A stretch of 64,000 nucleotides of DNA from Bispira polyomma (Eukaryota), in contig OZ287753.1 in the NCBI GenBank assembly GCA_965649765.1, positions 68,944,001-69,008,000 of the forward strand. Direction: 5' to 3'. The notes under the pieces were generated by a model. It did not search any database. It saw nothing but the letters and a program-made list of their open reading frames with translations, and was not told the origin of the DNA. The translations under genes were made by a program, and so were the position numbers. Below are positions 1-38,436 of this stretch, piece by piece. How positions within the stretch are numbered: position 1 is the stretch's first letter; each line of letters opens with the position of its first letter.

Positions 1-330
1 CTACTAAACCACTCTTTTAAACAATCTAAAATATATACCGTAAATAATATAAACTATATATTACAAATCTGATCTGTAATTTTGTCTCTTTATCTGACTA
101 TATGAACTCGATGGGATAACTCAAGCTAATTTCCAAATATATTAGAATGAAATATGCTGAGGAAATACAAACATAATTTGAATCAATCGAAATATTTATA
201 GTATTATATTACAACTACAAATACTACTGCCTCATCTGAAATAAACTCAGATATACATTCTCTTACATCAAATATACAAAATTATATATTTGCATACAAA
301 TATAAACAAAAATATAAGAATAAAGTTAAA

Positions 331-775
331 CGGTGTTCTTATGGTAACCGTACAGTATTACTATTTTAGATCTAGTATTTTATCTGGTATAACAATAAAC
401 TTAAGCGGTGTTCTTATGGTAACCGTACAGTATTACTATTTTAGATCTAGTATTTTATCCGGTATAACAATAAACTTAAGCAGTGTTCTTATGGTAACCA
501 TACAGTATTACAGTAGAACCTCTATTATCCAACCCTCTATTATCCGACTATTCTATTTTACGGACTCGATTTCATTCGCCCAAACTTAATTTTTTGCTAT
601 TGTTTTATACTAAAATGTGCTTTCTATTTTACTAAGCCTCTATTATCCAAACAAATTCTCACTCTCCCAATATGGTCAGATAATAGATTTTCTACTGTAC
701 TATTTTAGATCTACTATTTTATCTGTTATAACAATAAAGTTTAGCAGTGTTCCTATGGTAACCCAACACTATTAC
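331..775. repeat. 75-bp tandem repeat (~3.4 copies), interrupted by a MITE
   Basis: Unit cggtgttcttatggtaaccgtacagtattactattttagatctag... starts at 331, 406, 481 and resumes after 699. Confidence 0.85.
511..697. mobile_element. Tc1/mariner (pogo/Tigger-like) MITE
   Basis: Imperfect TIRs cagtagaacctctattatcc / gataatagattttctactg, TA duplicated on both sides; removing it restores the 75-bp repeat unit. Confidence 0.75.
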
Positions 776-821
776 TAACTTACAACAGTCTGTTTTCTTG
801 TAAAATGCCTAATAAATACAC

Positions 822-2521
822 TTACAGCTCAACCTCTTCCATCTCTATTGTATCTGACTCTTTTTTAGACTTAGACCTGGTGACCATTCCACTTTCCCCA
901 CCTTTCTTAGCTTTATCCCCCTTTGAAGATTGTGGGCTTCCCAACAAGTCAGTGTTTTCCTCATCCTCATCTGAATTATCTAATTTTAGATTAGCTAATC
1001 TTAACTCTGGATATGGAACATTACGTTTACACTTTTTCCTCAACATACAAATCACCCAAACAATGCTGGAAGTGATACTACTTAATACTCCTATAGGCAA
1101 TGAAATTTCAAGAATATGAATTGTTTCTTTTTCCCTCTCATCAGACTCATCATCAACATTTTGGAAAATAATTTTTGGTTCTTTAATTTTGTCTACTTCA
1201 CCTTTACCTTTTATACCATTATTTACCCCACCAAATTTTTCCTCTTTATCACTCTTATTATTACTCTCTTTATCAGCATCATCACTAGTATCATATACAT
1301 TTACACGTTCATCACTGTTGCTATCACTATCTTCTCTACTCCTCAACTCTTCTTCTGTATCTTACTCCTCTACATCCCCCTCTGAATCCTGATCTTCCCT
1401 ACTAGACTGAACTTTACCCTCTGCTTCCTCCTTCGAATCCACATCCTCTCTACTAGTCTGATATTTCTCCCCGTCGTCTTTCTCTTCATTCTCACCATCT
1501 ATTGTACAAAAAAATATTGCAAAATATTAATATATAATTATAATTTTTTTAGGCACCAGTTTGAGTAGAAATCCTCAATCATGAGGATGTGGCAACAGCA
1601 CCAGCTGTTGAAGCGATGTCAGCTGTCATCGAGGTGGGTACAGATGAGGAGGATGACCTCCCCCTGGAGGACTTCAATACATCTGAGGAAGGCGAGGAGG
1701 AGGAACTAGGCTGGGAAGTGGAGCTGACACCTGAGGAGGAGGAACTAGACCAGGAAGTGGAGGTGGTGTCACCTCCAAGATAAATTATTTATCCAGATAG
1801 CTCGGATATCGATTACTTCGAGCAGGATATTTCGTCAAGTGACGATGAACTTAATTTATACTAACAATCAGGTTAATTTTTTCTACCTTGAAAATAAAAG
1901 CTAAATTATTGTAAATAATTTAAAATAAATGAATATGGTATTATAGAAATTATCTTTTTATTCATATTATAATAATTATCACCTCCTTTAAATAGTTATA
2001 TCTCGATTTTAGACTATGTCCTCTCATTTAACCACTAATTTAACACCTTGTACTGAAAATCTACAGCTTTTTTTATCTAGAACAGGAGATTACATACGAT
2101 TTTACTCGTGTATAAATAATACGAATAAATAATAATAACGCAACAAACAGAAACACAAACAAAACAAAAAAAACGATAACAACATACCTTAAGTATCTAT
2201 TTAACCTTAATTAACCTCTTTAATACCGTATGCGCATCCTTTCACTGTAAAACTTTCATCGGCTATGTAGCGACACCGAACCCTGCTTTGAATCACAATT
2301 TCGTCAATCTGAGGCATATTAACCTTCATTTCAATTCCATCTACCCAACTAATATCGCTATTGTAAATCACCAACGCTCTAACCGCATGATCACTCAGCT
2401 CATATAAATCGGAATTAGTCATATCAGTGCAGTACATCCTTTGGCTGCGCAGGAAGCGACAGCGGTATGTCACAACACCGGGACATAAAAACAGCAATAG
2501 CAAACAAATCAAACAAACCAT
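822..2521 (-). pseudogene. Polinton cargo: spliced type-I membrane protein (signal peptide, Cys-bounded LRR-like ectodomain, acidic stalk, TM, cytoplasmic tail); exons ~2521-2227 and 1498-822, one in-frame stop near 1363
   Basis: ORF 2521 begins with hydrophobic MVCLICLLLLFLCPGVVT; phase-1 donor G|GTATT at 2227 matches phase-1 acceptor tttttgtacaatAG| at 1499; downstream frame has D/E-rich stalk and TM ISLPIGVLSSITSSIVWVICML-RKK. Confidence 0.5.
1553..1864 (+). pseudogene. Acidic terminal exon of an unknown Polinton gene (includes ORF 1589-1783)
   Basis: Acceptor tttttttAG at 1552, E/D-rich frame continuing through two internal stops to TAA at 1864, AATAAA at ~1893. Confidence 0.4.
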
Positions 2522-3031
2522 ATTGTAATCTCAAACAGTCCTAATGTTTTATTTTCTTTAAAATCTCTCACTTGTCTTCTTTCTCGAGCCTTCTTATCCC
2601 ACACACGCCTTTTGAAAGCGGATATCCGAAATTTTATTTTACAGCCGCTTGTATACACAGAATATGGTACGTACTAAATCTTCAGAAATATTTATCGAAT
2701 AAACTTTTCTTTGCTCAATACAAATTCTCTTTACACTATAAAATCTCTCAAATATCCACCCTTTTTTAACAAATAATTACAAAACCTGTCTGCAAAAAAA
2801 CTATTTTACATACCCTATATCAGTCAAGAGACAGACTGCAGAAAGAGTTAAAGCTGCTGTTTAAATCTGTCAATCTGTCAGTTTCATTCAAAATTGAAAA
2901 ACTATCGTATATAACGTCATCGCATTCTTCTTCACTATGATGTGAATGTTGTTAGAGTATATCAACTTTAATCAGTCTTAACTCGACTTGAGCTTTATAT
3001 TTTTAATCCCGTTGTTATTAAAAATACGAGT

Positions 3032-3832
3032 TTAATAATAAAATAGTTTCAAATATACCCACCAATTACTGCCTCTTTCAAACAGCTGTACCCCGTCTAC
3101 TACTCTGGCAGAGTATATAGGGTTTTCTCCCATTTCCATGTTCAAATCCTCTAAATCTAACCTCCTTCCTGCTGGTGGAGGATGTCTCCTTTTGCAGATC
3201 ATAACTATAACCAAAAAAGTGGATAGCAAACCTAATAGATATGCTATCACACTCAGAATAATCTTTATATGTGTATTGTTTCTATCAGTGGATATTAAAT
3301 AATTTTCTGTGAAGTTTCGTCCAATATTTCAATTGTAGAAATCAATGTAGAAGACTCTACAAGGGTTTGATCCTCAGGATAGGAAACTGACACAAATTTT
3401 GTTTGTGATGAGGTATGGAAATTAGCACTGCTTCTGCTTGTCATGGCATGGCTAATGTAGTCCCTGGTACTCATAAATGTGGATAATTGCTCCATATTCG
3501 TAGGGGTTACAGTCACCTTCTCGAACTTGCACATATTGGTTACAAGTTCTATATTAGCAGGAATCAATTTCAGAGAGTTACAATCCAAATCTCTCATGAA
3601 CAAGAGAGATAACTTTCATATATTTGGAAATACTTCCAAAATCTCCTCCATATCCGCAATCCTGACATCCTCTAAATATAGACTCTCAATCAAATTCCCT
3701 TTACCCTTAAACTGTGGATGATTCACACTAATACATTTTTAAACTTTAAGTTTGCTCTGACTAAAAAACCCTGTATACTGAAAATATGAACAAATGACTC
3801 ACAATCCCCAAAAGCAGTAAGACTTGTAACAT
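3032..3832 (-). pseudogene. Polinton cargo: second type-I membrane protein (signal peptide, LRR-like segment, S/T-rich stalk, TM, NPxY tail), disrupted
   Basis: ATG 3832 MLQVLLLLGIVSHLFIFSV; IESLYLEDVRIADMEEILEVFPNI*KLSL; S/T-rich ORF 3603-3295; TM IAYLLGLLSTFLVIVMIC-KRR and NPIY in ORF 3250-3032; stops/frameshifts between. Confidence 0.5.
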
Positions 3833-4047
3833 TACTTGCTTTTTCTATTTATTGAAGTGATCCTGTTTCTTTGACTGGGGCATAAAACCGAGCCTGCATA
3901 AATAAACAATCTTCCAAAGATAATAACATCAATTAGCATAAAGCTCTCATCTATATGACTTTGATAGCAAGCAGATGTAAATTACCTCTTTAATATAAAC
4001 AGAATAAGTCTTTTATCACCTATTTAGTACCTCTCTCTTGGCATGTA

Positions 4048-4490
4048 TTACATTTACACTCTGGCAGAATACGTAACATCAGTGTGCGTTTCCATCTACT
4101 CAAATTTTACTTATTGAATGGTATGCTTTACATTTACACACTGTTAGAATACGTAACACCAACTTGCACTTCCATCTAATCCATTTTTTACTTATTGAAT
4201 CTTTACATTTACACTCTGATAGAATACACAAAATCAGCGTCCGTTTCCATCCACTCAAATGTATTAGTTTAAAAATTAGCTCATCGCATATGTGAAAACC
4301 TAGCTTAAAGGGGGGGGGGGGCTCTCTAGGTAAAAAGCAGCTTTTATCACCACGCTATAGCAAGATTCTCTAAGTAGAATGATAAGTAGTTACGGACATA
4401 GCTCATCGCATATCTGAAAACGTAGCCTAAGTATACTGTCTAGCTGTAAAGCAGTTTTATCTCCACACTATAGTAAGGAAATCTAAATAG
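4048..4490. repeat. Two tandem repeat families (3x ~76-79 bp; 2x ~122 bp) in the divergent intergenic region upstream of polB
   Basis: ttacatttacac..gaatac at ~4048/4127/4203; tagctcatcgcata..gaaaac at ~4277/4399. Confidence 0.75.
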
Positions 4491-4758
4491 ATTATTTGTT
4501 AAAACCTTTTGAATATAATTCAATGAGAGTTTTTAGTAACAGAATGTATAAAATGCGTCATAGCTATGGTTTATAAACATTTTATAATAAATATGATTCA
4601 TGCTATAATTTGTAAAATCAAGTATAGTTGTCTATTTATAGAAATGATTGAGTCATGATAACTGAGTGTGTATATATATAGATATAGCTCAACTTTTATA
4701 AACTCATAAGGCATTTGTTGATGCTACCCTGCTAAAACCTTCTCACACTGAGAATGGA

Positions 4759-7700
4759 GTGTCCTTACTGTCAGAAGTTTTTAATGAGAAACAGAAATCT
4801 AAAGAGACACTTAAGGAGTGTGTACTATTAAGGGGGGTAAAGGAAATGGTATGCCCCCATTGTCAAGAGATTTTTACTGAATATAACAATTTGGGTAAAC
4901 ATTTAGAGAAATGTACTCCTCCAAGGTCGTCTCATCAAGACATTGTCAATTGTCCCTATTGTGACAGACACTATAATAACGTTGATCAAAAACAAGATCA
5001 TGAAAGAACATGTCTTAAATGTTATAGGTGTGGTACTTCTTTTAACACCCCACTCAAAAAAAGACTTCATCTAAAAGAGTGTAGAGTTGCTAGGTCTGAA
5101 TCGCAGATATACTGTGAAGACGAAACTGAGGTAAAGGTTACTAAAACAGATTCAAATGATAATTCTCTTCAAACAGAATTTGACAAAGTTTGGGATACTC
5201 ATAAATTACCAAAAAATGAGACGCATACTAAAAAGCTGATACATAAACAGTGTACTTCAAATCATGGTGATGATAGAACTTGTACTGAGAGTTATTCCTG
5301 TAAAAAATGTCATCATCAATTTGATTCTAGGTGGAATCTTTATATTCATACTATTACGACTCATAATCAAACAGGTGGTCAAAGTCATCTGCAAGATCCA
5401 GTCCTACCCCCAGATTACGAATTTGAAACTGTAAATATGTCAAATGCATACAAATCAAACCTTCAGCACATATTAGCTCAACATAACAGAGGTACATTAA
5501 AGACAACCTATAACTTTCCTACTGATGATTTATCGCGTGGAATGAGGGAAATATCAGAACATTTAAACGGAATATACAACGATCAAAATAATGCCTTTAA
5601 AATTAACCTATCTTTTGGTTTGATACTTAAAAATACTGAAAATGATGACTACCGTTATTATGTTCCATTTTATAACCAACAACTATTCCCCACTCCTTTT
5701 ACTATATCTCGCAGAGGTAATATCAGACATCTTTATCACAAAATAAGAGGACTAGATCTACCAGAATTTGTTAGACAGCTCAAACCCAATAGTAAATGGG
5801 TACCGGTTATGATTACTAATATTAATTATAACGTCATTCCAACGGCTTACTATTTAGGGTCTAATGCAATCATTCTTCCAGATTATATAAAAAATTCAAA
5901 ATCGATTATAGCATTAGATACTGATACAAAATCACTGCCATATGGAGATCATCTATGCGCTTTTAGAGCCTTAGCAATGCATAATAAGCTGAGCGGTATA
6001 AAGGACATGGCAACCAATTACTATTATAAATGGTGTGATTTTATAAACATACAAAAACATCATTTAGCATATCAAGGTCTTTTATTAGACCAGATACACC
6101 TTTTTGAGGAATGTTTTCATTTAAATGTTAACATTTATTCCCTTAAAGAAGACAATCTTGTGGTACCGGTTTATAAATCTATGTTGCGATATGATAAGGT
6201 TATGAATCTAAATATGTACCAAAACCATCTCAGCTATATCACAGATATTAGCAGATACAGTCGGAAGTATCAATGTACTCAATGTGACAAATTTTTTAAA
6301 ACAACTTCTACACTTAAGAGACATCTGGATAAGTGTTACAACAAAACGCGTTACGTATATCCAGGTGGTTTTTATCAGCCTAGTAAAACTATATTTGAAA
6401 AGCTCAGTGGTTATGACACCCAGGTTGAGACTGTTAGAAGGTTTTATCCCTATTTTGTAGTTTTTGATTTCGAATCTATGTTATTAAAGAGGGAGGGGGG
6501 AGAACCAACAAACACTAAATTGATTTACACTGTAGAGCATCACCCCATCAGCGTTTCTATATGTTCAAATGTAGATGGATACAAAGAAGCCAGCTGTTTT
6601 GTAGAGGCAGATGTGGACAAACTACTGAAAAGATAGAGACTTTAAAGGGAGGTATTTTAGGGGAGAGCTTTAATTCTAATCATATAGAGTTATTAGAAAA
6701 GGAATTTCTAAGGTATATTAGACAAATTCCTGTGTTGGGATTTAACAGTGGAAAATACGATTTAAATTTAATTAAATCCCAACTGGCGGGTCATTTATTT
6801 CAAAATAAAGACAGGGCAAATTTCACCGTTAAAAGAAACAACAATTACTTATCTCTCAGTACAAATAAGTTAAAATTTTTAGATATTAGTAACTATATTG
6901 CTGCGGGTGTCAGTTATTCAAAATTTCTCAAGTGTTATGGGGTAACAGAAACTAAAGGTTATTTTCCTTACGAATGGTTTGATTCTTTAGATAAGCTTAA
7001 TTATAGAACATTACCTCCTTATGATGCTTTTTATTCTACATTAAAGCAATGCAATGTTTTATCTGATAGGGACAATTATACTTTACTCCAGAATGTCTGG
7101 AAAGACAAAAACATGCAGACTTTTAAAGATTTTTTACAATGGTATAATAACCTAGATGTAGTCCCATTTTGTACCGCAATCACAAATCTGCAAGAATATT
7201 ATATTAATAAGGGAATTGATATTTTTAAAAATTACATATCAGTGCCGGGAATAGCTAGAAAAATGCTTTTTGATTCTACAGATTGCAAATTTTCACTTTT
7301 TGATGCTAAAAATAAGGATCTATACCTTACAATGAAAAATGGGATTGTAGGAGGTCCTTCCATTGTATTTCGACGTTACCACGAGGTAGATAAAACATTT
7401 GTGAGGGAAAATATAGATAAACCTGTTAAACTTATCGAAGGACGGGACGCGAATAGTTTGTATTTATGGTGTTTTGCCCAAAAATTGGGAACATGATTAT
7501 TTGTAAGAAGACACAAAGAAACTGGTTTCAAAGGAGAGGTTCCAGTGAAATATCTAGAACAATACATTTGGCTAGATTATGAGGCAGAAAAAAATAATAT
7601 TTATATACAACACGGTTTAAATAGTAGCAAAGAGTTTCGTATTGAACCTTATTAGTGGGGGGGATGAAGGCTGAACAAATTTTTTTAGCAACACCACTTT

Positions 7701-9089
7701 TAAAATGGTATTTAGATCATGGTATGAAAATTACTCAGATATATCAGGTTGTAGAATACGTAGCCAAAAATTGTTTTGATAATTTTACCTCCGAAATTTG
7801 TGATAGAAGGAGGCAGGGAGATATTAGTCCTGATAAAGCTATAATAGGAGAACTCTCTAAGCTACAAGGTAACTCAGCTTTTGGATCCTCAATTATGTCT
7901 AAAGAAAGACATTTAGACATTAAATATGTAAAGGGGGTGAGAGAGGCTACATTACTGGTTAATAATCCGTCTTTTAAAAATTTAACAGAATTGAAAAATG
8001 ACATGTATGAGGTCGAGAAATATAAAACCAAAATTACCTTAGATTTACCTATTCAAATAGGTTATTTTATTTTACAATATGCCAAATTAAAACTATTGTC
8101 TTTTTATTACGACTGTTTAGATCGATATGTAGACAGATGAGATTTTGAAATGATAGAAACGGATACAGACAGCGCCCTCAGTAAAAGATCCTTTGAGGAG
8201 AGTATCAGACCGTCCTTACGTTTGGAATATAGAAAAGATGTTTATGAATCTTGTAGAGATAATTTTACACCTAAGTGGTTTCCAAGACTTTGCTGTTCTA
8301 CCCACATAGCCTTTGACAAAAGAAGTCTAGCCTTGTTCAAGGTCGAATGCCTTGCCTCCAAGGCTATTTGTCTGTCTTCTAAAACCTACATAATGAGAGA
8401 GTTAAATGAAACGGATAAAATATCATGCAAAGGGATTTCTAAGAAAAGTCTTAATAATGCTATGAAATTATTTGAAAGCGTACTAAATAGTCAAAAGCCA
8501 CAACCATCTACAAATATGGGATTCAGAGCAAGATGCAATACAATTTACACATACACTCAGGAAAAATTAGGTTTCTCATATTACTATATTAAAAGACAGA
8601 TGTTAGAAGACGGTATACAAACTAAAGCTTTAAACATAATATCAAAACCTTGGCCAGACGATATTGTTATAGTGAAAAGCGACCTTGACCTATTAGCTAA
8701 TGGTTATTTATTTGATATTAGTATAGAGGGTAATAAATATTTGAATATAAACAAATATTTTGATGAATATAAAAAAAAACATTATTTATCCTCTATATCA
8801 ACTAGCTCTAGCAATCTTAAAGACTGGAAGTGGTTTAAACAAAGAGATAACATTATGTATACAATACTACTTTATAAAATACAACAGTGTCCTCGTTTTG
8901 CAGATGCACTGCATAAAACAAAAAAAAACTTATATATGCTATAATGTAACAGATAATTTATATTGGAATGTCGAATTAAGTAATAATCTGATGAGGGTTA
9001 TAAATAGGGACTCATATCCAGGTCAAAATCAAATGGGAGAGTTATTAATGAAACTTAGAGATACAGTTTTAATGACCGCGTCACTATGA
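4759..9089 (+). pseudogene. polB: Protein-primed family B DNA polymerase of Polinton (Zn fingers, terminal-protein region, OTU-like domain, exonuclease, polymerase, C-terminal NADAR-like domain); broken into 5 ORFs
   Basis: ExoI FDFES, ExoII GFNSGKYD, KGYFPYE, ExoIII YNNLDV, motif A DANSLY, motif B KLQGNSAFG, motif C ETDTDS; stops at 7494 and 8138, frameshifts near 6630, 7650, 8925. Confidence 0.92.
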
Positions 9090-9718
9090 GTATCAAATTT
9101 GAAGATCCTGCCAGTATACTTATGTCTGGGTGTAGTAATTCGGGCAAGACCACATTTCTATACAAACTCTTAGCCAATAAGAGAGATATGTTTGTGAGAC
9201 CGCCTAAAAAAATATTATATTGCTACTCTGTCTGGCAACCTATTTTCGATTCTCTTCAAAATAAAATTGACATCGGCTTTATTAAAGGACTGCCTGATCA
9301 GAGTGTAATTGATTCTATGAATGATGGAAATCATAATATTTGTATAATAGATGACCTTCAAGAAGAGGTTTCTGGTAATAAATTTATAGAAAAACTATAT
9401 ACCACATTATGTCATCATTATCACCTCACAGTCATTACTATTTTACAAAATTTATTTTATCAGGGTAAAACCTTAAGAACTATTAACCTAAATAGTCATT
9501 ATTTAATTTTATTTAAAAATCCGCGTGACATCAATCAAATAAAGTATTTAGGACAGCAAACAGGTTTCAAAAAAACTTTGGAAGAAGCATATAAAGACGC
9601 CACGGATGAGTGTTATAATTATCTGTTATTAGACTTATCTCCGCATTCCAGTACACAATACAAATTAAGAACCCACATATTACCTAGTGAAGACATAGTA
9701 GTATATTTAGCCAGGTAG
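9086..9718 (+). CDS. A32/FtsK-like genome packaging ATPase
   Basis: Walker A GCSNSGKT, Walker B IIDD, LQN, RTINLNSHYLILFKNPRD typical of Polinton ATPases. Confidence 0.93.
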   Translation: MSIKFEDPASILMSGCSNSGKTTFLYKLLANKRDMFVRPPKKILYCYSVWQPIFDSLQNKIDIGFIKGLPDQSVIDSMNDGNHNICIIDDLQEEVSGNKFIEKLYTTLCHHYHLTVITILQNLFYQGKTLRTINLNSHYLILFKNPRDINQIKYLGQQTGFKKTLEEAYKDATDECYNYLLLDLSPHSSTQYKLRTHILPSEDIVVYLAR

Positions 9719-9737
9719 GGTAATAAAGCCTATAAAT

Positions 9738-10070
9738 ATGACTGGTAGACTTAAAGGCGGGGCAGATTTTATTAGTTTTTTGTTAAACACCCACTCCAAA
9801 CAGAGACAGGCGATACTAGACACTTTGAATGAAAAACAGATTGGAGTAATAGTAGAAATAATTCACAACATCCTACGACTGAACCATTTAAAGAAGTATA
9901 AGGCTATTATTGGTAGAAACCTCAGAGTTTGGAAAAAATTAACCAATAGAAAAATAGGATGGAAGGATAAACAGAGGGTGATAAAACGAAATACTAAAAA
10001 AATAGAGAGTCTTATTGATTCGGTAAGGGGAGATCTACTGACTATATTAGGGGCTTGGCAGTATGAATAA
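9738..10070 (+). CDS. Small basic conserved Polinton protein (putative core protein)
   Basis: K/R-rich 110 aa, EIIHNIL motif, position directly after ATPase, overlaps next ORF. Confidence 0.65.
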   Translation: MTGRLKGGADFISFLLNTHSKQRQAILDTLNEKQIGVIVEIIHNILRLNHLKKYKAIIGRNLRVWKKLTNRKIGWKDKQRVIKRNTKKIESLIDSVRGDLLTILGAWQYE

Positions 10071-10497
10071 ATTTGTTTTAGTGCCTTATGAAAGATATAA
10101 AAATTGGACAAATTCTAAACCAAACTTTACTCAAGAAAAACATGGGTTAAATAATGATAATATACCAATTGACAGTATTCACCAGCCTCAACCGAAGGAA
10201 GATAAAGCATTAAATAATACGCCTGATAATAAAGCGACAGAGTTAGACACAAGACCTGATAATAAAGGGCCAGAGTTAGAGGCAAGATTACCAGATGGTG
10301 TTGATGTAATAAAATCAAGTAAGTCTGTAAAAAAGGTCATGGTTAAAAAAGTTGTAAAACCCCCTCAGATTGGAAAAGGAGTAGATAATATTAAATTACC
10401 TCCACCAGGTTTGCCAGATAATACGGGTAAATTAAAGGTAAAGACTTCTAGGAGGGGGGCGTACAATGTCTGGGTAAAAAAATGGGAGAGGTATTAA
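10063..10497 (+). CDS. Polinton hypothetical protein (K/P-rich)
   Basis: MNKFVLVPYERY start, QIGKG, PPPGLP and C-terminal W..KW; operon-like packing. Confidence 0.65.
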   Translation: MNKFVLVPYERYKNWTNSKPNFTQEKHGLNNDNIPIDSIHQPQPKEDKALNNTPDNKATELDTRPDNKGPELEARLPDGVDVIKSSKSVKKVMVKKVVKPPQIGKGVDNIKLPPPGLPDNTGKLKVKTSRRGAYNVWVKKWERY

Positions 10498-10578
10498 TAT
10501 ATAAGTCTGAACAAATTTAATATATTCTTGACTGTTGAACTTAAACTGATTGTATTTTAAAGTCTCAGCCGCATAATA

Positions 10579-11710
10579 ATGGAAAAAATTAAGACAGATT
10601 ATTTACACGACCTATATTACAATCCTAAAAATCCAACCTCATTCATCGGTTTCAATAAATTCTACACTTTTGTAAAAAATGATAATAAATATCCTTCTAC
10701 TAAGAAAGATATAAGAGAATGGATGGGTAAACAAGACGCCCTTATATTGCACCGTCCAGTTATAAGAAAATTTAAGAGACCTGTTACCATAGCTGTCAAA
10801 AAGGATCAACAGTGGAATTCAGACACAGCCAATATGGTTAAATTTAAAAAATACAATAAGGGCTATCAACATTTTTGTGTGGTGATAGATAGTTTAACCA
10901 GATATCTGTGGACCTTTCCAATACATAATCTCACAGGATTAGAAATGAAGGAGGGATTTAAAAAATTACTAGGAACCCACAAACCCCATTTTTTATTTTC
11001 TGATAATGGCAGTGAGTACAAAAGCAAAATATTTCGTAATTATGTTAAGGAACAAGGTGTGCAACATTTCATGAGTACTAATGAGACTAAGGTAGCTTTG
11101 GCTGAGAGAGTAATAAAAAACATTAAATTAAGGTTGATAAGGCGAATGACAGGACAAAATAATTTTATATGGTATGATGGGTTATCTAGCCTGACTGAGG
11201 CGTATAATAGTTCTTATCACAGAATTATTAAAACAACACCGTCAAATGCTAGAAATATGGATGACTACGATTTGTGGACAAATCAGTATAGTATTGGATA
11301 TAATGCAAAGAAGAAAAAGTATAAAAAAAAACAAGACTGCACCCTCTCCACAAAAATTACCATATAAATATAGGGTGGGAGATGTGGTAGAGGTAGCCTA
11401 TTTATCTAGACCGTTTGAAAGAGAATACGACAAAAAGTATTCAGGAGAAAATTTAATCATTGCTGACAGACATATAAATCAGGGTAAAGCACAATATAAA
11501 GTTAAAGATCTCAATAATAAGCTGATCGGTGGTAATTTTTTTAACAACGAATTGCAAAAGGTATATATAGATAGCGAAACTACATATCGAATAGAAAAAA
11601 TACTTAAAAGTCGAAGTAGAGGGGGAAAAAAGGATTTTTTGGTGAGGTGGGAAAATTATTCTCCAAAGTTTGATAGTTGGGTGACTGAAGAAGATATTAA
11701 AGATATATAA
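10579..11710 (+). pseudogene. Retroviral-like (c-)integrase with C-terminal chromodomain, frameshifted in an A-run near 11325
   Basis: YYNPKNP, QWNSD, FSDNGSEY, AERVIK, YNSSYH; chromodomain YRIEKIL...FLVRWENYSPKFDSWV. Confidence 0.92.
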
Positions 11711-11734
11711 TGAATTATTCTATTAAATAACATA

Positions 11735-12139
11735 ATGAATCATTTATACTTCTACATACATCCTACGGATTCTACTAAATATCACCCACAAAATAATTCA
11801 TGGGAATTTATTATCAAATTAAACGACGTGTTAGAGCTAGATGGAGTGTGGAAATGTGGATTGGCTGAAATTAGATACGGCGATGAAATTAAAGAACAGT
11901 TATATGTATATTGCGATATTGTAGATGAGAGTTTTATAGAGGATCATTGTAGACCAATTTTAAGAGTAGTTAATTCACCCACAGTTTTTAATCATATTTA
12001 TTATAAACGAGTGGTTAGACAAGATTTAGCTAGAATTAGAGTATATATAAGAGGTAAAGATTTAAAAAAAGTTACTATTAGTAATACTCCAACCTTTGTG
12101 GTATTGTCACTGATAAAACAGAGAGTTCAAAATGGTTAA
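11735..12139 (+). CDS. Minor capsid protein (penton-like, single jelly roll)
   Basis: HPQNNSWEF..L...LELDGVWKCGLAEI and LYVYCDIV...ILRV motifs; located between integrase and major capsid gene. Confidence 0.78.
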   Translation: MNHLYFYIHPTDSTKYHPQNNSWEFIIKLNDVLELDGVWKCGLAEIRYGDEIKEQLYVYCDIVDESFIEDHCRPILRVVNSPTVFNHIYYKRVVRQDLARIRVYIRGKDLKKVTISNTPTFVVLSLIKQRVQNG

Positions 12140-12419
12140 TTGGAATAAAGTTTGTGAGAGTATGAGAGACGGGAAGTTAACAATGGATAGAAACCTATAT
12201 ATAATAAGAGAATAGACAGGAGGGGGCACTAATGCAAACGATCTGGTAACAATAATTTCACCTACTGAGCAGCAGGTGGATATGGCTAGGTCGCAAATTA
12301 AAAATAAAACTAAAAAAAGAGTGGTTGTTAAAAAGAGAAAAAAATTGAGTAAAAAAGGGAAGATAATTAAGAAGACTAAAAAGACGAAAAAGACAAAAAA
12401 GACTAGAGGGAAAAGATAA
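12132..12419 (+). pseudogene. Small basic core-like protein with protamine-like K/R tail; premature TAG
   Basis: MVNWNKVCESMRDGKL...IRE*TGGG...ISPTEQQVDMARSQIK...KKTKKTKKTRGKR*; not in ORF track because of the stop. Confidence 0.65.
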
Positions 12420-12536
12420 GACGACTAAAAGTATATATATATAGAGAGAGTTAGTAAGTAAACAGTTTAATCGTCAGTTGGTATCCGGATTGTAGTTGAC
12501 TAAAACTTAAGTATAAGGAAAAACATAAATAGCAAG

Positions 12537-13838
12537 ATGAATGTCTTTCAAGAAAAGGTGGCTCTGTTCCAAAAGCCGTTAATAGACCCCTCCATACATC
12601 ATATTGACTGGGTAGAATACAGACCTTCTGGCCAAATTAAAAGCGGAAATGTAATTGAGATTAATATAACTGGTGATGGAGCAGATTATATAGATTTAGA
12701 AAGAAGCAGATTGCATATAACAATGAAAGTTGTAAATAAGGACGGAACTAATCTAGCAGCTACAGCTAAGGTGGCTCCGGTAAATTTAGCCCTGCATTCC
12801 CTCTTCAGACAGGTGGATTTGTCTCTACAGCAAGTCAACATTTCACCCGGTGTGGGAATTAACTATCCTTATAAAAGTATAATAGATATTTGGTTACATA
12901 ATAGTTTTGTGGGCGAACAGGGACAGTTAGAAAATGAACTATTTGCTAATGATACCGCTAGTTATCACGATGATACAACTGGTGATGGTAATACAGGTTT
13001 TGGTGGGAGACAAGATAGATGTGCTCTGAGTACTGTGGTGGATTTATACGGCCCTTTACATCTTGATTTAGCCGAGCAGGAAAGACTTATATTAAATGGT
13101 GTGCAAATAAATGTAAAATTATATCCCAGTACTGATACTTTTAGATTAATGTCGGGTGATAATGCCCAAGAATATAAGGTAGAGATGGTTAATGCTGCTT
13201 TACAAGTATGTCAGGTAAAATTAAATCCTGAACTAGTTTTAGCCCATGCCAAGGCGTTAAAATTAGGCCCTGCATTATACCCTTATTGGCAAAGTGATTT
13301 TAAAACGTTCACCATACCTAAAGGAAATATGATGTGGAGTGATGATGGAACTTTTCATGGAGAGGTGCCAAGCAAACTAATTGTAGGTTTTGTCCCTGGA
13401 GAAGGTTATAGCGGTAGTTATACAAAAAAACCCTTTAAATTTCATCACTACAGTTTAAATTACTTAGAATTTAGCGTAGATGGGTTACCTGTTCCATGTC
13501 GCCCATTTAGACCTAATTATGTAGAGGGTTCTATCAGTGCAAGACCCACCTTTACAACTGGACATTATGTGGAAACGTATAATAGTCTATTTTATGGTAA
13601 ATATGGTGAAAATGAAAACAATCTGATTAAATATACCGATTATCCTAACGGGTGTTGTCTGTACGTATTCAATATAGATAGTAATGTGAGCGGACCGCTA
13701 AAGTCAGAACGTAAAAAGGGACATACAAGGATAACGGTTAATTTTGGAAAGGCTTTAGCCGAAAGTGTTACAGCTATATTATATGGTCGTTTTCCTGCTA
13801 TGATAAGTATTGATGAGTCTAGAGCGATAGATCAATGA
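12537..13838 (+). CDS. Major capsid protein (hexon-like, double jelly roll)
   Basis: 433 aa intact; WVEYRP, YIDLERSRL, LHSLFRQVDL, NYPYKS, GPLHLDL..QERLILNGV, PFKFHHY motifs of Polinton major capsids. Confidence 0.9.
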   Translation: MNVFQEKVALFQKPLIDPSIHHIDWVEYRPSGQIKSGNVIEINITGDGADYIDLERSRLHITMKVVNKDGTNLAATAKVAPVNLALHSLFRQVDLSLQQVNISPGVGINYPYKSIIDIWLHNSFVGEQGQLENELFANDTASYHDDTTGDGNTGFGGRQDRCALSTVVDLYGPLHLDLAEQERLILNGVQINVKLYPSTDTFRLMSGDNAQEYKVEMVNAALQVCQVKLNPELVLAHAKALKLGPALYPYWQSDFKTFTIPKGNMMWSDDGTFHGEVPSKLIVGFVPGEGYSGSYTKKPFKFHHYSLNYLEFSVDGLPVPCRPFRPNYVEGSISARPTFTTGHYVETYNSLFYGKYGENENNLIKYTDYPNGCCLYVFNIDSNVSGPLKSERKKGHTRITVNFGKALAESVTAILYGRFPAMISIDESRAIDQ

Positions 13839-14280
13839 ATACCTCTCAATTAAGGGTTAAAATGTTGTCTGACATTTATATCAGACAATATTATGGTGGG
13901 GTATATGCAGCAAATGAATTACCCTTAAAGTTAAATAATTTACCTAAAATTATAATTGTTAATACCAAACCTTATCCACATCTAGGTGAACATTGGATAG
14001 CCATGTATGTGGATAAAAACCGGATAGAATATTTCGATTCCTTGGCTGGTTTAACTCCAAAAGTTTTGAAAATTTCCTTTTGAGACATCAAGATAATTAT
14101 AGCAAAAATACTGTTAGAGTACAAAGTTATAAGTCTATGTTATGTGGCGAATATTGTTTGTATTATGCCTATCATAGATGTAGGGGTAAGAGATATGTCG
14201 ATATATTAAAGGGTTTCGGTGATAATTATAATATTAATGACAAAAAAATAAGTTCATTTTATGATTCTAAATTTAGTTAA
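13835..14280 (+). pseudogene. Adenain-like cysteine maturation protease, frameshifted near 14080
   Basis: GEHW, EYFDS, Q....LCGEYC catalytic motifs across two overlapping ORFs. Confidence 0.9.
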
Positions 14281-14695
14281 TATGACTGTGTCCAAGGGAT
14301 AGATGGCATCTAGCAGTTTTCTTTGTGCTAGATGGGTTTCACTCTGATATAGAAATGATGTCATTTAGTCTAGGTTAAAATTGTTGACAAATAGTTTTCT
14401 TTGTGTAATGGAGGGTTAGTCTGGTCTCAAAATGATGTCATTTAGTCTAAAGTATATTTGATGACGAGGTTTTATAGTGGTGATGTAAATGGTCTAAAGA
14501 GACAAAGGGTTCTAATATTTACATAATGTAAATGTTAATCTATGACATAATTTAAAGGGGGTTTCATCTTATGAGTCAGTGATTGATGATGCAATTGAGG
14601 TGTTGTCATAGTGAAATTATGAATAATAAAAGGTTAGGTAATGAGTTATAATTAGATTTCTAGGGGGGAAAAAGGGTATATATTAGGGGGAGAGA

Positions 14696-15427
14696 ATGAG
14701 TGAGAGATTAATTTCAACTGAAAGATTAAAGATGGCTACTACTACTACTACAAATGCCAGAGGGGTAGGACAAGTAAGAGGAGAAGATGAAGCTGATTGT
14801 GTGGTGGCAGCATCGGCATCAAGTTTTAGAAGGAGGGCGGACAAAAAGCAAAAAATGGAGAAACTTACAAATAAGTTCACAAATTTCCAGTTAGAGGAAG
14901 AATCCTTATGTATGTGTCGAGATTGGTTAGACTACAAACTCTACTATAATAGGCTGGAAAGTTTCAGGGGCTGGCCCAGAGGGGTTGGTATCACACCTAA
15001 AGAACTAGCCAGAGGAGGATTCAGGTACAGCGGGTATGGAGACAACTGCGTCTGTCCTTGGTGTAACATGCAGGTCAAGAATTGGAACTATTTCGATGAA
15101 CCTCTGAGACTGCATGCCAAACAAAACCCCAGTTGTGAGTATGTACAAACGGTGTCTCCTACTACAAATAAATTTATAGAAAGAGGAAACTACAAGTTGT
15201 ATCAAAACCGACTGGAGAACTTCAGAGGGTGGAAAGTTGGCGATATAGTTAGACCTGAGCAATTAGCTAGAGCAGGCTTCATGTATACAGGGTTAGGCGA
15301 CAGATGTCAGTGTTTGTGGTGTTCCGTCATATTACATTCTTGGCATTATCTAGACGAACCCCTGACTGAACACAAGAACAATTCCAAAAACTGTGGGTAC
15401 TTAAAAATGATTCTGCATGATGAATAA
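14696..15427 (+). CDS. Inhibitor of apoptosis protein with two BIR domains, no RING
   Basis: Two R..(S/N)F..W ... LAR.GF.Y.G..D.C.C..C ... H......C repeats with all Zn ligands; intronless; TATA-like tatatatta at ~14677. Confidence 0.92.
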   Translation: MSERLISTERLKMATTTTTNARGVGQVRGEDEADCVVAASASSFRRRADKKQKMEKLTNKFTNFQLEEESLCMCRDWLDYKLYYNRLESFRGWPRGVGITPKELARGGFRYSGYGDNCVCPWCNMQVKNWNYFDEPLRLHAKQNPSCEYVQTVSPTTNKFIERGNYKLYQNRLENFRGWKVGDIVRPEQLARAGFMYTGLGDRCQCLWCSVILHSWHYLDEPLTEHKNNSKNCGYLKMILHDE

Positions 15428-15989
15428 GTGCTCCTAGACATTTTTTGAGGGGGGAAAGATGACTGTAAAATAATTATATTTTGAAATGAATAAAATAATT
15501 AAAATAAAAAATATAAATATATATATATATATAAAAAAATATTAAAAATATTATATATGTTGTATAAATTGCATGTCGATTTTGTGTTATTGCATATCTG
15601 AGTTAGTTAGATTTTTATATTTGTGTAAATATATATATATATATATATTGTATATTTGATGTAATTATTGTAAAATAAAAGTAGACTAGATTAAAATTGT
15701 GTTGTTGTTTATTTAAAAAAAATGTCTATTTTGTTGACATTAGAAAATGCTGATTGTGAGAGTAATGTCATTGTCAAATGGAAATTATATGTTGAAGAGA
15801 CTAATACCCCTTTAGAATTAAGGTGAGCTCTATAAAAATCAAATATTTTATAATACATTGTGTCAGTCAAGCGAACGCTTGTTATTTATACATAATGTAT
15901 ATAAAAGCGATAGACCTCTAGCTCCCTTCACAATCTTATATCAGTGCTTGGTCAAATTTTGATGCTAAGAAGTTGCGTATATGATATAA

Positions 15990-16299
15990 CGAGTTCAATC
16001 ATCTCATATATATCGTTACCCTATTAGATCTCTCGGGGTAAAATATCCCAATCATCTCATATTTATCGTTTGCCTATTAGAGGTCAGTTAGATGGTAATA
16101 AAGGCTGTATAAAGCGCTGTAGTAGTACATGGCGTATCTACTAATTTGACGGTAACAACGTCCACATACACAAGTCCATATCATGTCCTCATATTTGAGG
16201 AGCGAAAATGAGCGAAAAAGGGGCTCCCATCTACTTTGTACAGGGGGCGAAAAGAATGAGCGAAAAAGACCTGGCTATCGGCTTACTTAACCTACTACT
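15990..16299. repeat. Probable right terminal inverted repeat region of the Polinton with internal short repeats
   Basis: Duplicated atctcatat.tatcgtt..cctattaga, repeated gagcgaaaa, ends CTACTACT; inner boundary not determinable. Confidence 0.6.
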
Positions 16300-17138
16300 T
16301 ACATAGATGATCTGGTTGCCATAGAAACTAGTGACAAAGCAACAGATTCTTTCCAGCAACTGTACGCATTAATTGAACACCTGGGTCTGCCCATTAACCC
16401 GAAAAAAGTATTTCCCTCCTCTCATGAGGTGGTGTGCATGGGTATACTTGTTAATGCAAAATTGGGGACATTAAAGATTCAAATTTGCTGGAATATCGCA
16501 TCTATGTAAGCAGTGGCTTCCAAAATCACAATGCACTTGAAGAGACTTGCAGTCTATTTTGGGCAAATTGCTCTATATAACCAGATGTGTGGCCCCTGCT
16601 AAGTTGTTTTTGAACCGCATGTTGAGACTGTTACTGTTAAGAGAAACTTACCCGAATAGAAATGTTATTCTCACTAGAGGCAGACTTAAGATGGTTTACC
16701 AAATTCCTCACTTCATTCAATGGAGTGGTAGCAATGCACCTGAAAAGCGAGCCTACTTATGATGTATATGTGGACGCATCTCTGACGGGCATTGGGGCAG
16801 TCTGGTCAGACAATGTTTATGCAGTTTGCCTCCCGACAGGAACACCGACGGACATGACCATAGTTCATTTTGAAATGTGAAATATCTTTGTAGCTATGAG
16901 AGTTTTGGGAAAATGCTTCCAGAACTGCACCATAAAGTTATGGTGCGACAACGAGGCGGTAGTAGCTGGCTTGAATTTAAAGCGATTCTATGAGAAAAAC
17001 CTGGGCATGCTGGCTCTTTGTATTTGGCTTGAGACTGCAAAATTCAATGTAAAATTGAAAATTGTACATATCCTAGGGGTGAAAAACTTCCAAGCGGATT
17101 ATCTGTCTCACATGTACATCCTTGGGTATAGGGACTAA
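16300..17138 (+). pseudogene. RT C-terminal half + RNase H of YR retrotransposon
   Basis: YIDDLVA...LGLPINPKK...CMGI; LQSILGKL; DLRWF; VDASLTGIG; WCDNEAVV; HILGVKNFQADYLS; several frameshifts/stops. Confidence 0.9.
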
Positions 17139-17209
17139 AAATTTAATGAAGTAAAAGATAAAAAGTGGTGGTCAGTGAGTAAGGACAAATTTGCACTCAA
17201 CACCAAATT

Positions 17210-18183
17210 TTGATGTACTTTTTAAGTACCCCTTTGCAAAAACTCCTACTAAGATCAGCTTCCACCAGGCTTGAAAATGCCTTAACTGAAAGAACCCAGC
17301 AAGTATATGGAAATTGCATTAAATTGTTTCTGGCATTTGCTGTGTTCTTGGGAGTGGAAAAAAAGTTTATGTTACAATTTTTAGAGTATCAAGCTCAGCA
17401 GGGGTTAAACCCCCTTATAATACAGAACTACGTGTTAGCCATAAAGCACCATTTTTAATTGTGGTCTGTTCCAGTGGGGGTGCTGTCTCATCCCCAGATA
17501 ACATTATTTTTCAGATCTTTATCCATGTCAACTCCCTATTCTCCCAGGTTAAAGGGACTTATCACCTTACCCATTTTGACTGCCATAATCCTGCAGAAAA
17601 TTCAATTCCACATTCTTATGTGTATCAGACGTTATTCCTAACGACCTTTCATTGGGATTTTCCGCTTGTCAAACTTGGTGCCTTCTAGCATTGGTCAATT
17701 TAATCCTGAACGGCACTTAACTTGTCAAGATTTTGTATAGGGATCTCCTGGAGTTCATGTCGTTTTGCATTGGGCAAAAAATTTACAAAAATACAATTAA
17801 TATCACGTGGTTCAATTGCCTGCCCTTAGAAATCCTCTTTTGTGCCCAGTAACAGCACTAAGGCTAATGTTTGCCAAAAATAGGAACACCCAGGAATCCT
17901 CAGTGTTTATGTGTAAAGTAAATGACAAACTGGTACCCCTTACTGCCTATAAAGTAAGGCGAGTGTTAAGAGAAATCATCGTGTCTTTGTCTCTTAATCC
18001 ACAGTCTTTTAGTTTTCACTCTTTCAGACGATCTGGGGCGACCTTGGCATTCGACAATCACGAATTACAGGCCATTATGGCCATAGGGGTTGGCGTTCTT
18101 CATCAGTATGGGTGTACCTGCAGTCCACCCCTAACGCTTCAGCCTTTGTCGCCCGTTCCCTACAAAGTATCATACCTAAATAG
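17210..18183 (+). pseudogene. Tyrosine recombinase of YR retrotransposon
   Basis: SAM-like N-terminus, FRLSNLVP in a shifted frame, LCPVTAL, FSFHSFRRSGAT, GWRSSSVWVY (catalytic Tyr), stop at 18181-18183. Confidence 0.88.
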
Positions 18184-19924
18184 GGTATATACTATACCTC
18201 GGAATAGAGCTGGAATCGAAATGGAATCGGAATGCCGCCCTGTACTGCCGCCCTGTACTGCCGCCCTGGTCATATAAGCTTGGTACTTGTATGTAAGTTT
18301 AAATATCTCAGCCATTTCTTAACGGATTTTGATGCAACAAAAAGCATAGGAATTACAATAAAATAAGCTTTCTTATCTTATTTTATTGCAAATTTTATCT
18401 TAACTAATTTCTGAGTTTTAAATAAATAATCACCATTTTGAGTGCAAAACCCACCAAAAATGACTGAAGGTTGCAATGGCAGTTGGAATGTACAGGAAAA
18501 TAGGTTGTAATGGGGATTGGAAAGGAGATATACCTCTCTACAAGGAGGCAGGTTGGACTGAAGGTTGGAATAGGAGTTGTAATGGGGATATACTTTTCTA
18601 CAGGGCGGAAGGTTGGAATGAGGGTTGGAATAGGAGTTGTAATGGAGATATGCTTCTCTCCAGGGCGGCAGGTTGGAATGGGAGTAGGAATGAGAGTTGT
18701 AATGAAGATATACTTCTCTCCAGGGCGGCAGGTTGAAATGAGGGTTGGAATGAGAGTTGGAATGGGGATAAACCTCTTTATAGGGGGGGGGGCAGACTGG
18801 ACTAAAGGTTGGAATGAGAGTTGGAATAGAGATATACTTCTCTTCAGGGAGGCAGACTGGACTGAAAGTTGGAATGGGAGTTGTAATGGAAATGTACTTC
18901 TGTCCAGGGCATTGTTAAATTCACAGGGCGGCAGGTATGGGAGTTGGAATGGAGCTAGGCTTCTCTACAGGGCGGTAGGTTAGAATGGGAGTTGGAATGA
19001 GAGTTGGAATGGGGATAATCTTCTTTATAGGGAGGCAGACTGGACTGAAGGTTGAAATGGAAGTTGTAATGGAAATGTACTTCTCTCGAGGGCGGCAGGT
19101 TGGAATGGGAGTAGGAATGAGAGTTGTAATGGAGAAATACTTCTCTCCAGGGCGGCAGGTTGGAATGGGAGTAGGAATGAGAGTTGGAATAGAGATATAC
19201 TTATCTACAGGGAGGCAGACTGGACTGAAGGTTGGAATGGGAGTTGGAATGGAAATGTACTTCTCTACAGGGCGGCAGGTTGGAATGGGAGTTGGAATGA
19301 GAGTTGTAATGGAGATATACTTCTCTCCAGGGCGGCAGGGTGAAATGGGAGTAGGAATGGGAGTTGGAATGGAGATATACTTCTCTACAGGGAGGCAGGT
19401 TGAAATGGGTGTTGAAATGAGAGTTGGAATAGAGATATACTTCTCTCCAGGGCGGCAGGTTGGAAGGAGGGTTGGAATGAGAGTTGTAATGGAGATATAC
19501 TTCTCTACAGGGCGGCAGGTTGGAATGGGGGTTGGAATGAGAGTTGGAATGGAGATATACTTCTCTACAGGGAGGCAGACTGTACTGAAGGTGGAAATGG
19601 AAGTTGGAATAGAGCTATGCCTCTTTAGAGGGTGGCAGGTTGGACTGGAGGTTAAAACTGGAGGAATTTTAAATATACAATCCAAATTTAACTATATCCT
19701 CATCAGCATTTTATTTGAATTATAATTAGTAAAACCTATCACAAGGTACATTATAAGAGCTTTCTAGTAATACCAAAATGAAATTTTTGGACGAAATATT
19801 TCGATAGATACATCCATTTATACAATTTTTTTTTTCATGTTGCACCTTAATCAAGTTGCCGCCCTGCCGCCCTGTTCCAGGGCGGCTGGAATAGGGCGGC
19901 AATTCCGAGGTATAGTATGTACCC
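18183..19924. mobile_element. Non-autonomous TIR element containing a satellite array
   Basis: 23-bp TIR gggta(t/c)atactatacctcggaat at both ends; ctaaata duplicated at 18176-18182 and 19925-19931. Confidence 0.85.
18476..19650. repeat. 60-bp tandem array with 12-bp sub-period
   Basis: Unit cagggcggcaggttggaatgggagttggaatgagagttgtaatggagatatacttctcta visible in register line after line. Confidence 0.93.
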
Positions 19925-37510: not shown

Positions 37511-38436
37511 TTACTGTTGTTCAGCTGGCTGCCTCTTTAATATGCTGTGTTCAAAAGGCTGTTCAGCTGGCTGTCTCTTCAGTATGCTGTGCTCAAATGG
37601 TTGTTCAGCTGGCTGTTCAGCTGGCTGCCTCTTTAATATGCGGTGTTCAAATGGTTGTTCAGCAGGTTGTTCAGCTGGCTGCCTCTTCAGTATGCGGTGT
37701 TCAAATGGCTGTTCAGCTGGCTGCCTCTTTAATATGCGATGTTCAAATGGCTGTTCAGCAGGTTGTTCAGCTGGCTGCCCCTTCAATATGCTGTGTTCAA
37801 ATGGTTGTGCAGCTGGCTGCCTTTTCAATATGCGGTGTTCAAATGGCTGTTCAGCAGGTTGTTCAGCTGGTTGCCTCTTCAATATGCGGTGTTCAAATGG
37901 CTGTTCAGCTGGTTGTTCAGCTGGTTGCCTCTTCAATATGCGGTGTTCAAATGGCTGTTCAGCAGGTTGTTCAGCTGGCTGCCTCTTCAATATGCTGTGT
38001 TCAAATGGTTGTTCAGCTGGCTGCCTCTTCAGTATGCTGTGTTCAAATGGCTGTTCAGCAGGTTGTTCAGCTGGCTGCCTCTTCAATATGCGGTGTTCAA
38101 ATGGCTGTTCAGCTGGTTGTTCAGCTGGCTGCCTCTTCAGTATGCGGTGTTCAAATGGTTGTTCAGCTAGTTGTTTAGCTGGCTGCCTCTTCAGTATGTT
38201 GTGCTCAAATGGCTGTTCAGCAGGTTGTTCAGCTGGTTGCCTCTTTAATATGCGGTGTTCAAATGGCTGCTCAGCTGGTTGTTCAGCTGGCTGCCTCTTT
38301 AATATGCGGTGTTCAAATGGCTGTTCAGCAGGTTGTTCAGCTGGTTGCCTCTTCAATATGCTGTGTTCAAATGGCTGTTCAGCTGGCTGGTCAGCTGGCT
38401 GCCTCTTTAATATGCGGTGTCCTGTCAGTCTCTTTC
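37511..38436 (-). CDS. Putative repetitive exon: 17 units of KR-QPAEQP(AEQP)FEH(R/S)IL (54/42-bp tandem array)
   Basis: Open frame, acceptor ttatctAG at 38437, unit variation mostly synonymous in this frame; gene context unresolved. Confidence 0.45.

Follow-up and report, generated by a model that had tools for sequence, protein, structure and literature searches.

Adintoviruses have been defined by an OTU-bearing DNA polymerase B (PolB) together with an integrase carrying a chromodomain (bioRxiv 10.1101/2024.03.25.586562), and an N-terminal OTU domain is present in both classes of adintovirus PolB (PMC8502044). This viral OTU (vOTU) has been proposed to cleave off the terminal protein, and viral OTUs are capable of deubiquitination too (PMC11071308). 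Other domains known to be added to protein-primed PolB (pPolB) are HNH, VSR and helicase (PMC12721341; bioRxiv 10.1101/2023.08.22.554363). Here we describe a 64-kb stretch of Bispira polyomma DNA (contig OZ287753.1, positions 68,944,001 to 69,008,000; "the window", numbered from its first base), of which the first 16.3 kb hold an adintovirus-like element whose PolB ends in a NADAR domain.

The locus very probably derives from a Beta-type adintovirus or Polinton with a VSR-type pPolB, of which it is a dead copy. It has in common with the Beta adintoviruses and Polintons with OTU-PolB (PMC8502044; bioRxiv 10.1101/2024.03.25.586562) a PolB with an OTU outside PF03175, an FtsK-like ATPase, an rve integrase with a chromodomain, a probable hexon, an adenain, IAP cargo, a putative inverted-repeat end and integration into the host. 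It differs in that the window copy is broken and in its membrane cargo weakly resembling leucine-rich repeat (LRR) proteins, which is not named in the available parts of PMC8502044. The closest PolB type was that of the pPolB2 Polintons of molluscs and a marine nematode, which have a VSR insertion (bioRxiv 10.1101/2023.08.22.554363). Unlike that group, the window has lost the VSR region, and neither "NADAR" nor "C-termin" occurs in the available text of that paper.

Described NADARs include those of Phytophthora nicotianae (8BAU) and E. coli (YbiA, 2B3W); E43 and E125 contact the distal ribose of the ligand, and K50, R79, W89, R93, D130 and W133 contact the pyrophosphate (PMC11543638). The phage NADARs AdfN and gp30.3, directed against DarTG1 (PMC11825919, PMC11125620), are virus-encoded like the domain described here and could protect DNA replication, but AdfN is encoded by bacterial viruses as a separate, active enzyme and its opponent is known, whereas the NADAR of PolB is tethered and mostly altered. 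NADARs are likewise carried together with a replicase in animal viruses, in the polyproteins of invertebrate RNA viruses, and are found in giant viruses (PMC9503650); the viral NADARs in the available text of that source are those of phages, nucleocytoplasmic large DNA viruses and RNA viruses, with no Polintons or adintoviruses among them.

A NADAR domain at the C-terminus of PolB

The window PolB (4846..9089, + strand) was a protein-primed polymerase of the Beta class, broken into six pieces that comprised N-terminal C2H2 fingers, vOTU, exonuclease, palm/thumb and NADAR. The pieces were colinear with an intact relative of 1583 aa, P0007, at 33-50% identity. The C-terminal NADAR (8636..9089, + strand) was interrupted by one frame break, and its two pieces matched the Pfam NADAR family at E 0.007 and 0.003 and a profile built from 39 PolB tails of relatives at E 1.3e-10 and 2.6e-11. 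When this profile was run against 1944 segments of the window, the next best match after the NADAR pieces had an E-value of 0.3. An earlier note on this DNA had placed OTU-like and NADAR-like domains inside PolB, and both were recovered here, the first by its Cys and His motifs and the second by the Pfam and tail-profile matches.

A query with the C-terminal piece of the window found three long proteins, two of which had NADAR in the same chain. One-ORF (open reading frame) fusions were present in the natural proteins P0001/P0007 and P0002, the former representing a cluster of 135 proteins, three or more of them 1583 aa long and on long contigs. With P0002 as query, a full search yielded 150 best matches; 142 of them reached the end of PolB and 60 had a tail of at least 40 residues. 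Pfam NADAR was matched at E<=0.01 in 42 of the 142, all within the 60 tailed proteins, and 29 scored above the gathering threshold. The profile from 39 tails added 12 further NADARs and raised the count to 54/142, a share that is inflated because the query P0002 itself has a NADAR. Fourteen fusions were 1500-1800 aa in length, and since the representatives were at most ~50% alike, many lineages are involved. These results indicated that the fusion is real and is widespread among the relatives of the window PolB. A programmed frameshift into NADAR was rejected as an explanation of the frame break, for the relatives carry NADAR in a single frame.

The fold of the tail was examined in a model of P0020 built from an 82-row alignment (pLDDT 93.8, pTM 0.84). 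Residues 359-513 of the model superposed on 8BAU with Z 19.6 and rmsd 2.0 over 155 aligned residues (Foldseek E 2.5e-8), and the tail matched E. coli YbiA (2B3W) with Z 16.3; residues 12-332 matched phi29 polymerase with Z 11.8. In BFVD, the two halves of P0020 matched adintovirus-type PolBs and viral NADARs, separately. The linker between PolB and NADAR was 18-21 residues in 37 of 39 proteins, and NADAR was fused behind the polymerase thumb. A single-sequence fold of another fusion, P0099, reached a pLDDT of only 29.

The tails themselves varied in form. P0040 had two NADAR-like units in tandem on PolB, and P0074 and P0123 had a Cys-rich, zinc-finger-like extension beyond NADAR. Shortened, clade-like NADAR tails of ~120-135 aa were seen in P0038, P0039, P0041, P0050, P0059, P0143, P0149 and P0150 (69 aa in P0150), with much of the helical core gone and the C-terminal motifs retained. 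In P0044, P0047, P0092 and P0114, PolB ended in another, Cys-rich tail of 55-60 aa with no NADAR; P0044 and P0047 lie near the branch of the window.

Outside the close relatives, 21 distant metagenome PolB loci gave no NADAR match (best E 0.36), and none supplied the gene context of a fusion. On one metagenome contig (L017:3695-4780, - strand) a related PolB without NADAR faced a capsid-like ORF with an end like that of the window hexon. P0002 had no match in an IMG/VR scan and no sequence match in PDB.

Literature searches, whose scope excluded most subscription papers and several supplements, returned no description of a Polinton or adintovirus polymerase fused to NADAR, and NADAR was not named in the main-text parts and readable supplement of PMC8502044 or in the available part of bioRxiv 10.1101/2024.03.25.586562. 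The fusion is thus apparently undescribed. The earlier note had not recognised the gene combination of the element as a described one; the fusion does seem undescribed, but OTU and IAP in such elements were already published.

Ligand-contact positions in the NADAR tails

The modelled tail of P0020 has the fold of 8BAU and YbiA, but the tails are fused to a viral DNA polymerase and have kept the contacts unequally. Among 39 aligned tails, the catalytic positions were occupied by E43 in 12, by K or R at position 50 in 16 and by E125 in one (Tyr in 15), and the full triad was found in a single tail. That tail was P0099, which on alignment to 8BAU showed E/K/E/D/W and scored 97 bits on Pfam NADAR. 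The remaining contacts were mostly kept: W89 in 35 tails, R or K at 93 in 28, D or E at 130 in 29 and W133 in 21 (an aromatic residue in 29), followed by R or K at 79 in 20; G78 was found in 3.

The window NADAR kept K50, W89, R93, D130 and W133, and E43 and E125 were replaced, the site of E125, on the second piece, being judged by eye. Of the set found in active YbiA-type enzymes, E43 with K50 and E, D or H at 125, only the lysine was present in the window.

History of the fusion

A FastTree phylogeny was built from the PolB core alone, with 144 rows; seven of 151 proteins were omitted for short coverage, and P0067 was counted as a fusion on a weak score (E 0.08). All 57 fusion rows fell within one 90-row half of the tree, with 12 label changes against 45 in shuffled labels, and the window was sister to P0007 with a support of 94. 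Similarity between tails followed similarity between PolBs with a rho of 0.43, a value reached in none of 2000 permutations. The simplest reading of the tree is one early gain with repeated losses: NADAR would have joined the polymerase early on, in one large Beta branch, been inherited along with it and dropped out several times.

Possible roles of the tail

We give a probability of roughly one half to the reading that an ADP-ribose eraser was fused to the polymerase long ago and that the tail now serves mostly as a binder or scaffold, docked on the thumb. The ancestral tail would have been a guanine-ADP-ribose hydrolase. In most lineages, the window included, the alignment shows that the glutamates of the distal ribose were lost and the residues holding the pyrophosphate retained. 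Such a tail may bind ADP-ribose marks or similar nucleotide groups beside the DNA exiting the polymerase without cleaving them, and in this way may let replication proceed on DNA or DNA ends marked by host enzymes. The binder role taken by itself is put forward tentatively, from residue conservation, at somewhat less than even odds.

Several observations weigh against this reading. The retention of W89, R93, D130 and W133 may reflect the fold alone. K50, which is needed for phosphate binding and hydrolysis (PMC11543638), was found in only 16 of 39 tails, and neither R/K79 (20) nor G78 (3) was better kept than in about half of them. Eighteen tails had none of the three catalytic residues, ~8 were cut to 110-135 residues with much of the helical core gone, and 88 of the 142 relatives had no recognised NADAR. 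The nearest neighbour was the same for tail and PolB in just 9 of 39 cases, and the deep supports of the PolB tree were 80-92, so that several gains are conceivable. The docking would be rigid as far as pTM and linker length can indicate it, and for the host no guanine ADP-ribosylating enzyme is known here.

Somewhat unlikely, in our estimate, is that the tail is a purely structural appendage with no link to ADP-ribose, serving as a thumb extension, in DNA grip or processivity or in partner binding. The 18 tails devoid of all three catalytic residues would fit such a role, as would the faster divergence of the tails (median identity 22% against 40% for PolB), the reduction of shortened tails to just their ends with the W-x-G and PG-x-N-x-x-G motifs, the Gly, Pro, Asn and hydrophobic character of the best-kept columns and the short, fixed linker. 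Polar ligand contacts, R/K93 in 28 and D/E130 in 29 of 39 tails, were nevertheless retained, P0099 is a natural fusion with a full triad, and most relatives replicate without a tail, which all count against this role.

It is decidedly doubtful that the tail is an active eraser throughout the family, removing ADP-ribose from guanines of viral DNA at the fork by means of altered residues, in the way that phage AdfN opposes DarT1, and so countering a DNA-ADP-ribosylating defence of invertebrates. The triad of P0099 and the presence of E43 with K50 in six other tails are in its favour; P0020 and P0002 have both the glutamate and the lysine, P0007 the glutamate only. D or H is tolerated at the third site in NADAR subfamilies, and the in vitro effect of an E88A substitution was minor (PMC11543638). 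DNA replication is restored by phage NADARs (PMC11825919), and CARP-1 of clam modifies guanine N2 (cited in PMC11543638). The third site, however, was Tyr, Asn, Phe, Val or Gln in 32 of the 39 tails and E, D or H in two, while substitution of this site abolished efficient activity of the E. coli enzyme (PMC11543638), and the window copy has lost both glutamates. The suggestion of the earlier note that the element counters ADP-ribosylation may be kept as a hypothesis: the NADAR is real, but its catalytic residues are mostly replaced.

PolB and its vOTU domain

The Beta class was assigned from the absence of PF03175 (the Alpha type), which was matched neither by the window pieces nor by P0007 and only below the cut-off in 3 of 60 relatives, and from the VSR insertion in P0007. 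P0007, the nearest intact relative, has a VSR-like nuclease within its polymerase. The window PolB was without ~160 codons near 7650, corresponding to residues 917-1078 of P0007 (the VSR region), and had a gap in motif C.

The vOTU domain (5900..6250, + strand) showed the catalytic Cys and His motifs. Among six NADAR-less PolBs that were checked, the Cys motif was found in all six and the His motif in four. In an intact element the vOTU would free the terminal protein, as has been proposed (PMC11071308). A side role against ubiquitin is possible and needs no special kit.

Core, integration and cargo genes

Within the first 16.3 kb, cargo genes pointing leftward were followed by a spacer rich in repeats (~4000-4800) and then by rightward genes in the order PolB, ATPase, two small ORFs, integrase, candidate penton, basic ORF, hexon, protease and IAP. 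The packaging ATPase (9086..9718, + strand) was an open, FtsK-like ORF with Walker A and B motifs and weak AAA matches in Pfam. The probable hexon, or major capsid protein (12537..13838, + strand), was an open ORF of 433 aa with 173 full-length homologues, the best at 45% identity and the only named one, from Pinctada imbricata, at 38%; a weak double-jelly-roll match, below the cut-off, was seen in 2 of 30 homologues scanned, and the hexon had no sequence match in PDB and none in the IMG/VR scan. The adenain-type protease (13835..14280, + strand) was split over two frames, with a Pfam C48 match at E 0.0015 and its His, Asp and Gln/Cys motifs spread on the two pieces.

The integrase (10579..11710, + strand) was likewise split over two frames and matched rve at E 6e-9 and, at its C-terminus, the chromodomain at E 1e-10 in Pfam. 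Two small ORFs of 110 and 144 aa (9738..10497, + strand) may encode virion accessory proteins by their position, and had no informative match in family searches. A candidate minor capsid protein (penton) of 134 aa (11735..12139, + strand) and a small Lys/Arg-rich ORF resembling core proteins (12216..12419, + strand) were assigned by position and by composition, respectively, with no informative family match. In an intact element the protein-primed polymerase would copy the element, the rve integrase would insert it, and packaging would be possible.

Towards the right end, an open ORF (14696..15427, + strand) encoded an IAP without RING and with two BIR domains (Pfam E 4e-36), both with their zinc ligands. 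IAP and Bcl2 homologues are described in adintoviruses, and IAP labels appear on two maps of Fig. S2 (PMC8502044); the IAP of the window is ordinary anti-death cargo. The gene set together with the PolB and integrase evidence agrees with the adintovirus-like element proposed in the earlier note, whose integrase and pPolB (both split) and dual-BIR IAP on the right were all found. Of its full morphogenesis module, the ATPase and adenain stood, the hexon was probable from its homologues and the weak double-jelly-roll matches, and the minor capsid and core-like proteins remained assignments by position or composition.

The leftward cargo was poorly preserved. An acidic, low-complexity ORF remnant in two pieces (822..1526, - strand) and a short acidic ORF remnant with an internal stop (1565..1860, + strand) had no family match. 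Membrane gene 1 (2073..2521, - strand), also broken, contained a signal peptide, a short Cys-containing ectodomain and one transmembrane helix on a separate piece. Membrane gene 2 (3032..3832, - strand), in at least four pieces, contained a signal peptide, an LRR-like stretch, a Ser/Thr-rich stalk, a transmembrane helix and a tail with NPIY; NPxY is a sorting motif. In Atlas, LRR proteins were a lead for gene 1 (0.91, first) and gene 2 (0.80), both under the reliability marks. Neither gene had a Pfam LRR match, and a search covering gene 1 only found no homologue among proteins of 57-182 aa. The two genes may be decoys or entry factors. Both do carry signal-peptide and transmembrane remnants; the name "receptor-like" given to them earlier is a lead from weak LRR-like sequence in broken genes.

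Ends and insertion site of the element

The decayed element was delimited at 1..16299 from its gene set and the lack of a second terminal inverted repeat (TIR) inside the window. Its right end (15900..16299, - strand) read AGTAGT inward from the terminus at 16299, which we take to be the terminal mark of a Polinton. The flank (16300..18277, + strand) belonged to a decayed DIRS-like retroelement, of which it was the 3′ part: the bases after 16299 translated as the YIDD motif of reverse transcriptase (RT), the insertion point lying directly 5′ of it, and weak RT and tyrosine-recombinase matches (Pfam E 0.05-0.1) followed downstream. As 16299 abuts these remnants, the element jumped into a DIRS-like retroelement, an integration seen at the right end.

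The partner TIR and the 5′ half of the DIRS-like retroelement were not found within the 64-kb window, so the element extends left of 822 and its left end lies off the window. Had the left TIR lain to the right of the membrane genes, these would be outside the element; no such TIR was found in the window, and most likely the membrane genes are inside. An AGTAGT at 4385 was rejected as left TIR since it lacked similarity to the right end. An AT-rich inverted match of 59 bp (263-321 against 15611-15664; 80%, with 17 exact bases) scored 57, where 200 local shuffles reached 43 at most, and 55 in a comparison with 59 control stretches that did not exceed 47. The match may represent an inner part of the TIR, and the left end would then lie ~370 bases to the left of base 1; alternatively, it may be a 3′ signal common to both places.

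Direct repeats of 75 bp (284..782) were broken at ~510-696 by a short host repeat of high copy number whose ends are inverted, resembling a miniature inverted-repeat transposable element; its read depth was very high, and loose ends numbered in the hundreds at 509/639/674. Between the leftward cargo and the rightward core genes, a non-coding spacer (4039..4500) contained 75-80-bp repeats; the GC skew changed sign near it, and from these features it is a probable divergent promoter region.

Decay of the window copy

ATPase, hexon, candidate penton and IAP remained as open ORFs, and PolB, integrase, protease and both membrane genes were broken. A working polymerase, integrase or protease cannot come from the window copy. 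Contigs assembled from three runs of one study covered all 30 bins in several variant sets, which fits a small family of copies, and several of the breaks in the window were mostly absent from these contigs. Assembly error may account for some of the breaks, but the stops and deletions are unlike what such error usually produces. In run X1 the contig depth, which does not equal copy number, was 97-118 over the membrane genes and 122-162 over the core genes, and no contig among the three runs spanned both cargo and core.

The earlier note had read these genes as one coordinated kit in four layers, directed at apoptosis, ubiquitin signalling, ADP-ribosylation and recognition at the cell surface, which we regard as very improbable. 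In its favour, no TIR separates the four kinds of gene, all of which are found from the window start to the right end; both catalytic motifs of the vOTU are intact, and viral OTUs can deubiquitinate (PMC11071308); the IAP ORF is open; and the X1 depths of membrane and core genes are alike. Against it, the vOTU is universal in the family with a role in replication, IAP is known, published cargo, the membrane genes are broken with no identified family, the NADAR is catalytically eroded, and nothing in these data points to joint expression or joint inheritance. Beyond the PolB-NADAR fusion, the rest of the element is ordinary.

The remainder of the window

Outside the element, a 60-bp tandem array of ~19 copies (18450-19720) had very high run depth, and a 54/42-bp tandem array (37511-38473, - strand) contained a QPAE-rich repeat ORF of 320 aa on the minus strand with no meaningful family match. 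A probable host exon (27030-27160, + strand) had an RHG-S-R motif, which we take to resemble histidine phosphatase and for which no matching Pfam match was obtained. Decayed host transposons were found at 41450-43800, 44800-46700, 50700-55300 and 57600-58900, including LINE-like RT remnants, a MULE/FAR1 element and a further remnant that is possibly Harbinger-like.

Significance of the fusion

The C-terminal NADAR, seen across dozens of lineages, is a further domain of pPolB, beyond the terminal protein, vOTU, exonuclease and palm and the HNH, VSR and helicase additions. By analogy with DarTG1 and AdfN, a large branch of animal Polintons and adintoviruses might have tethered an ADP-ribose eraser or reader because invertebrates ADP-ribosylate viral DNA in defence, so that the tails, which range from fully catalytic ones to binders, would record an arms race with an unrecognised innate defence; we consider this unlikely on present evidence. 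The natural series of tails, from a full triad to none, supplies small soluble domains for direct assay. If the tails bind or cut guanine-ADP-ribose, DNA ADP-ribosylation would be a candidate antiviral defence in invertebrates.

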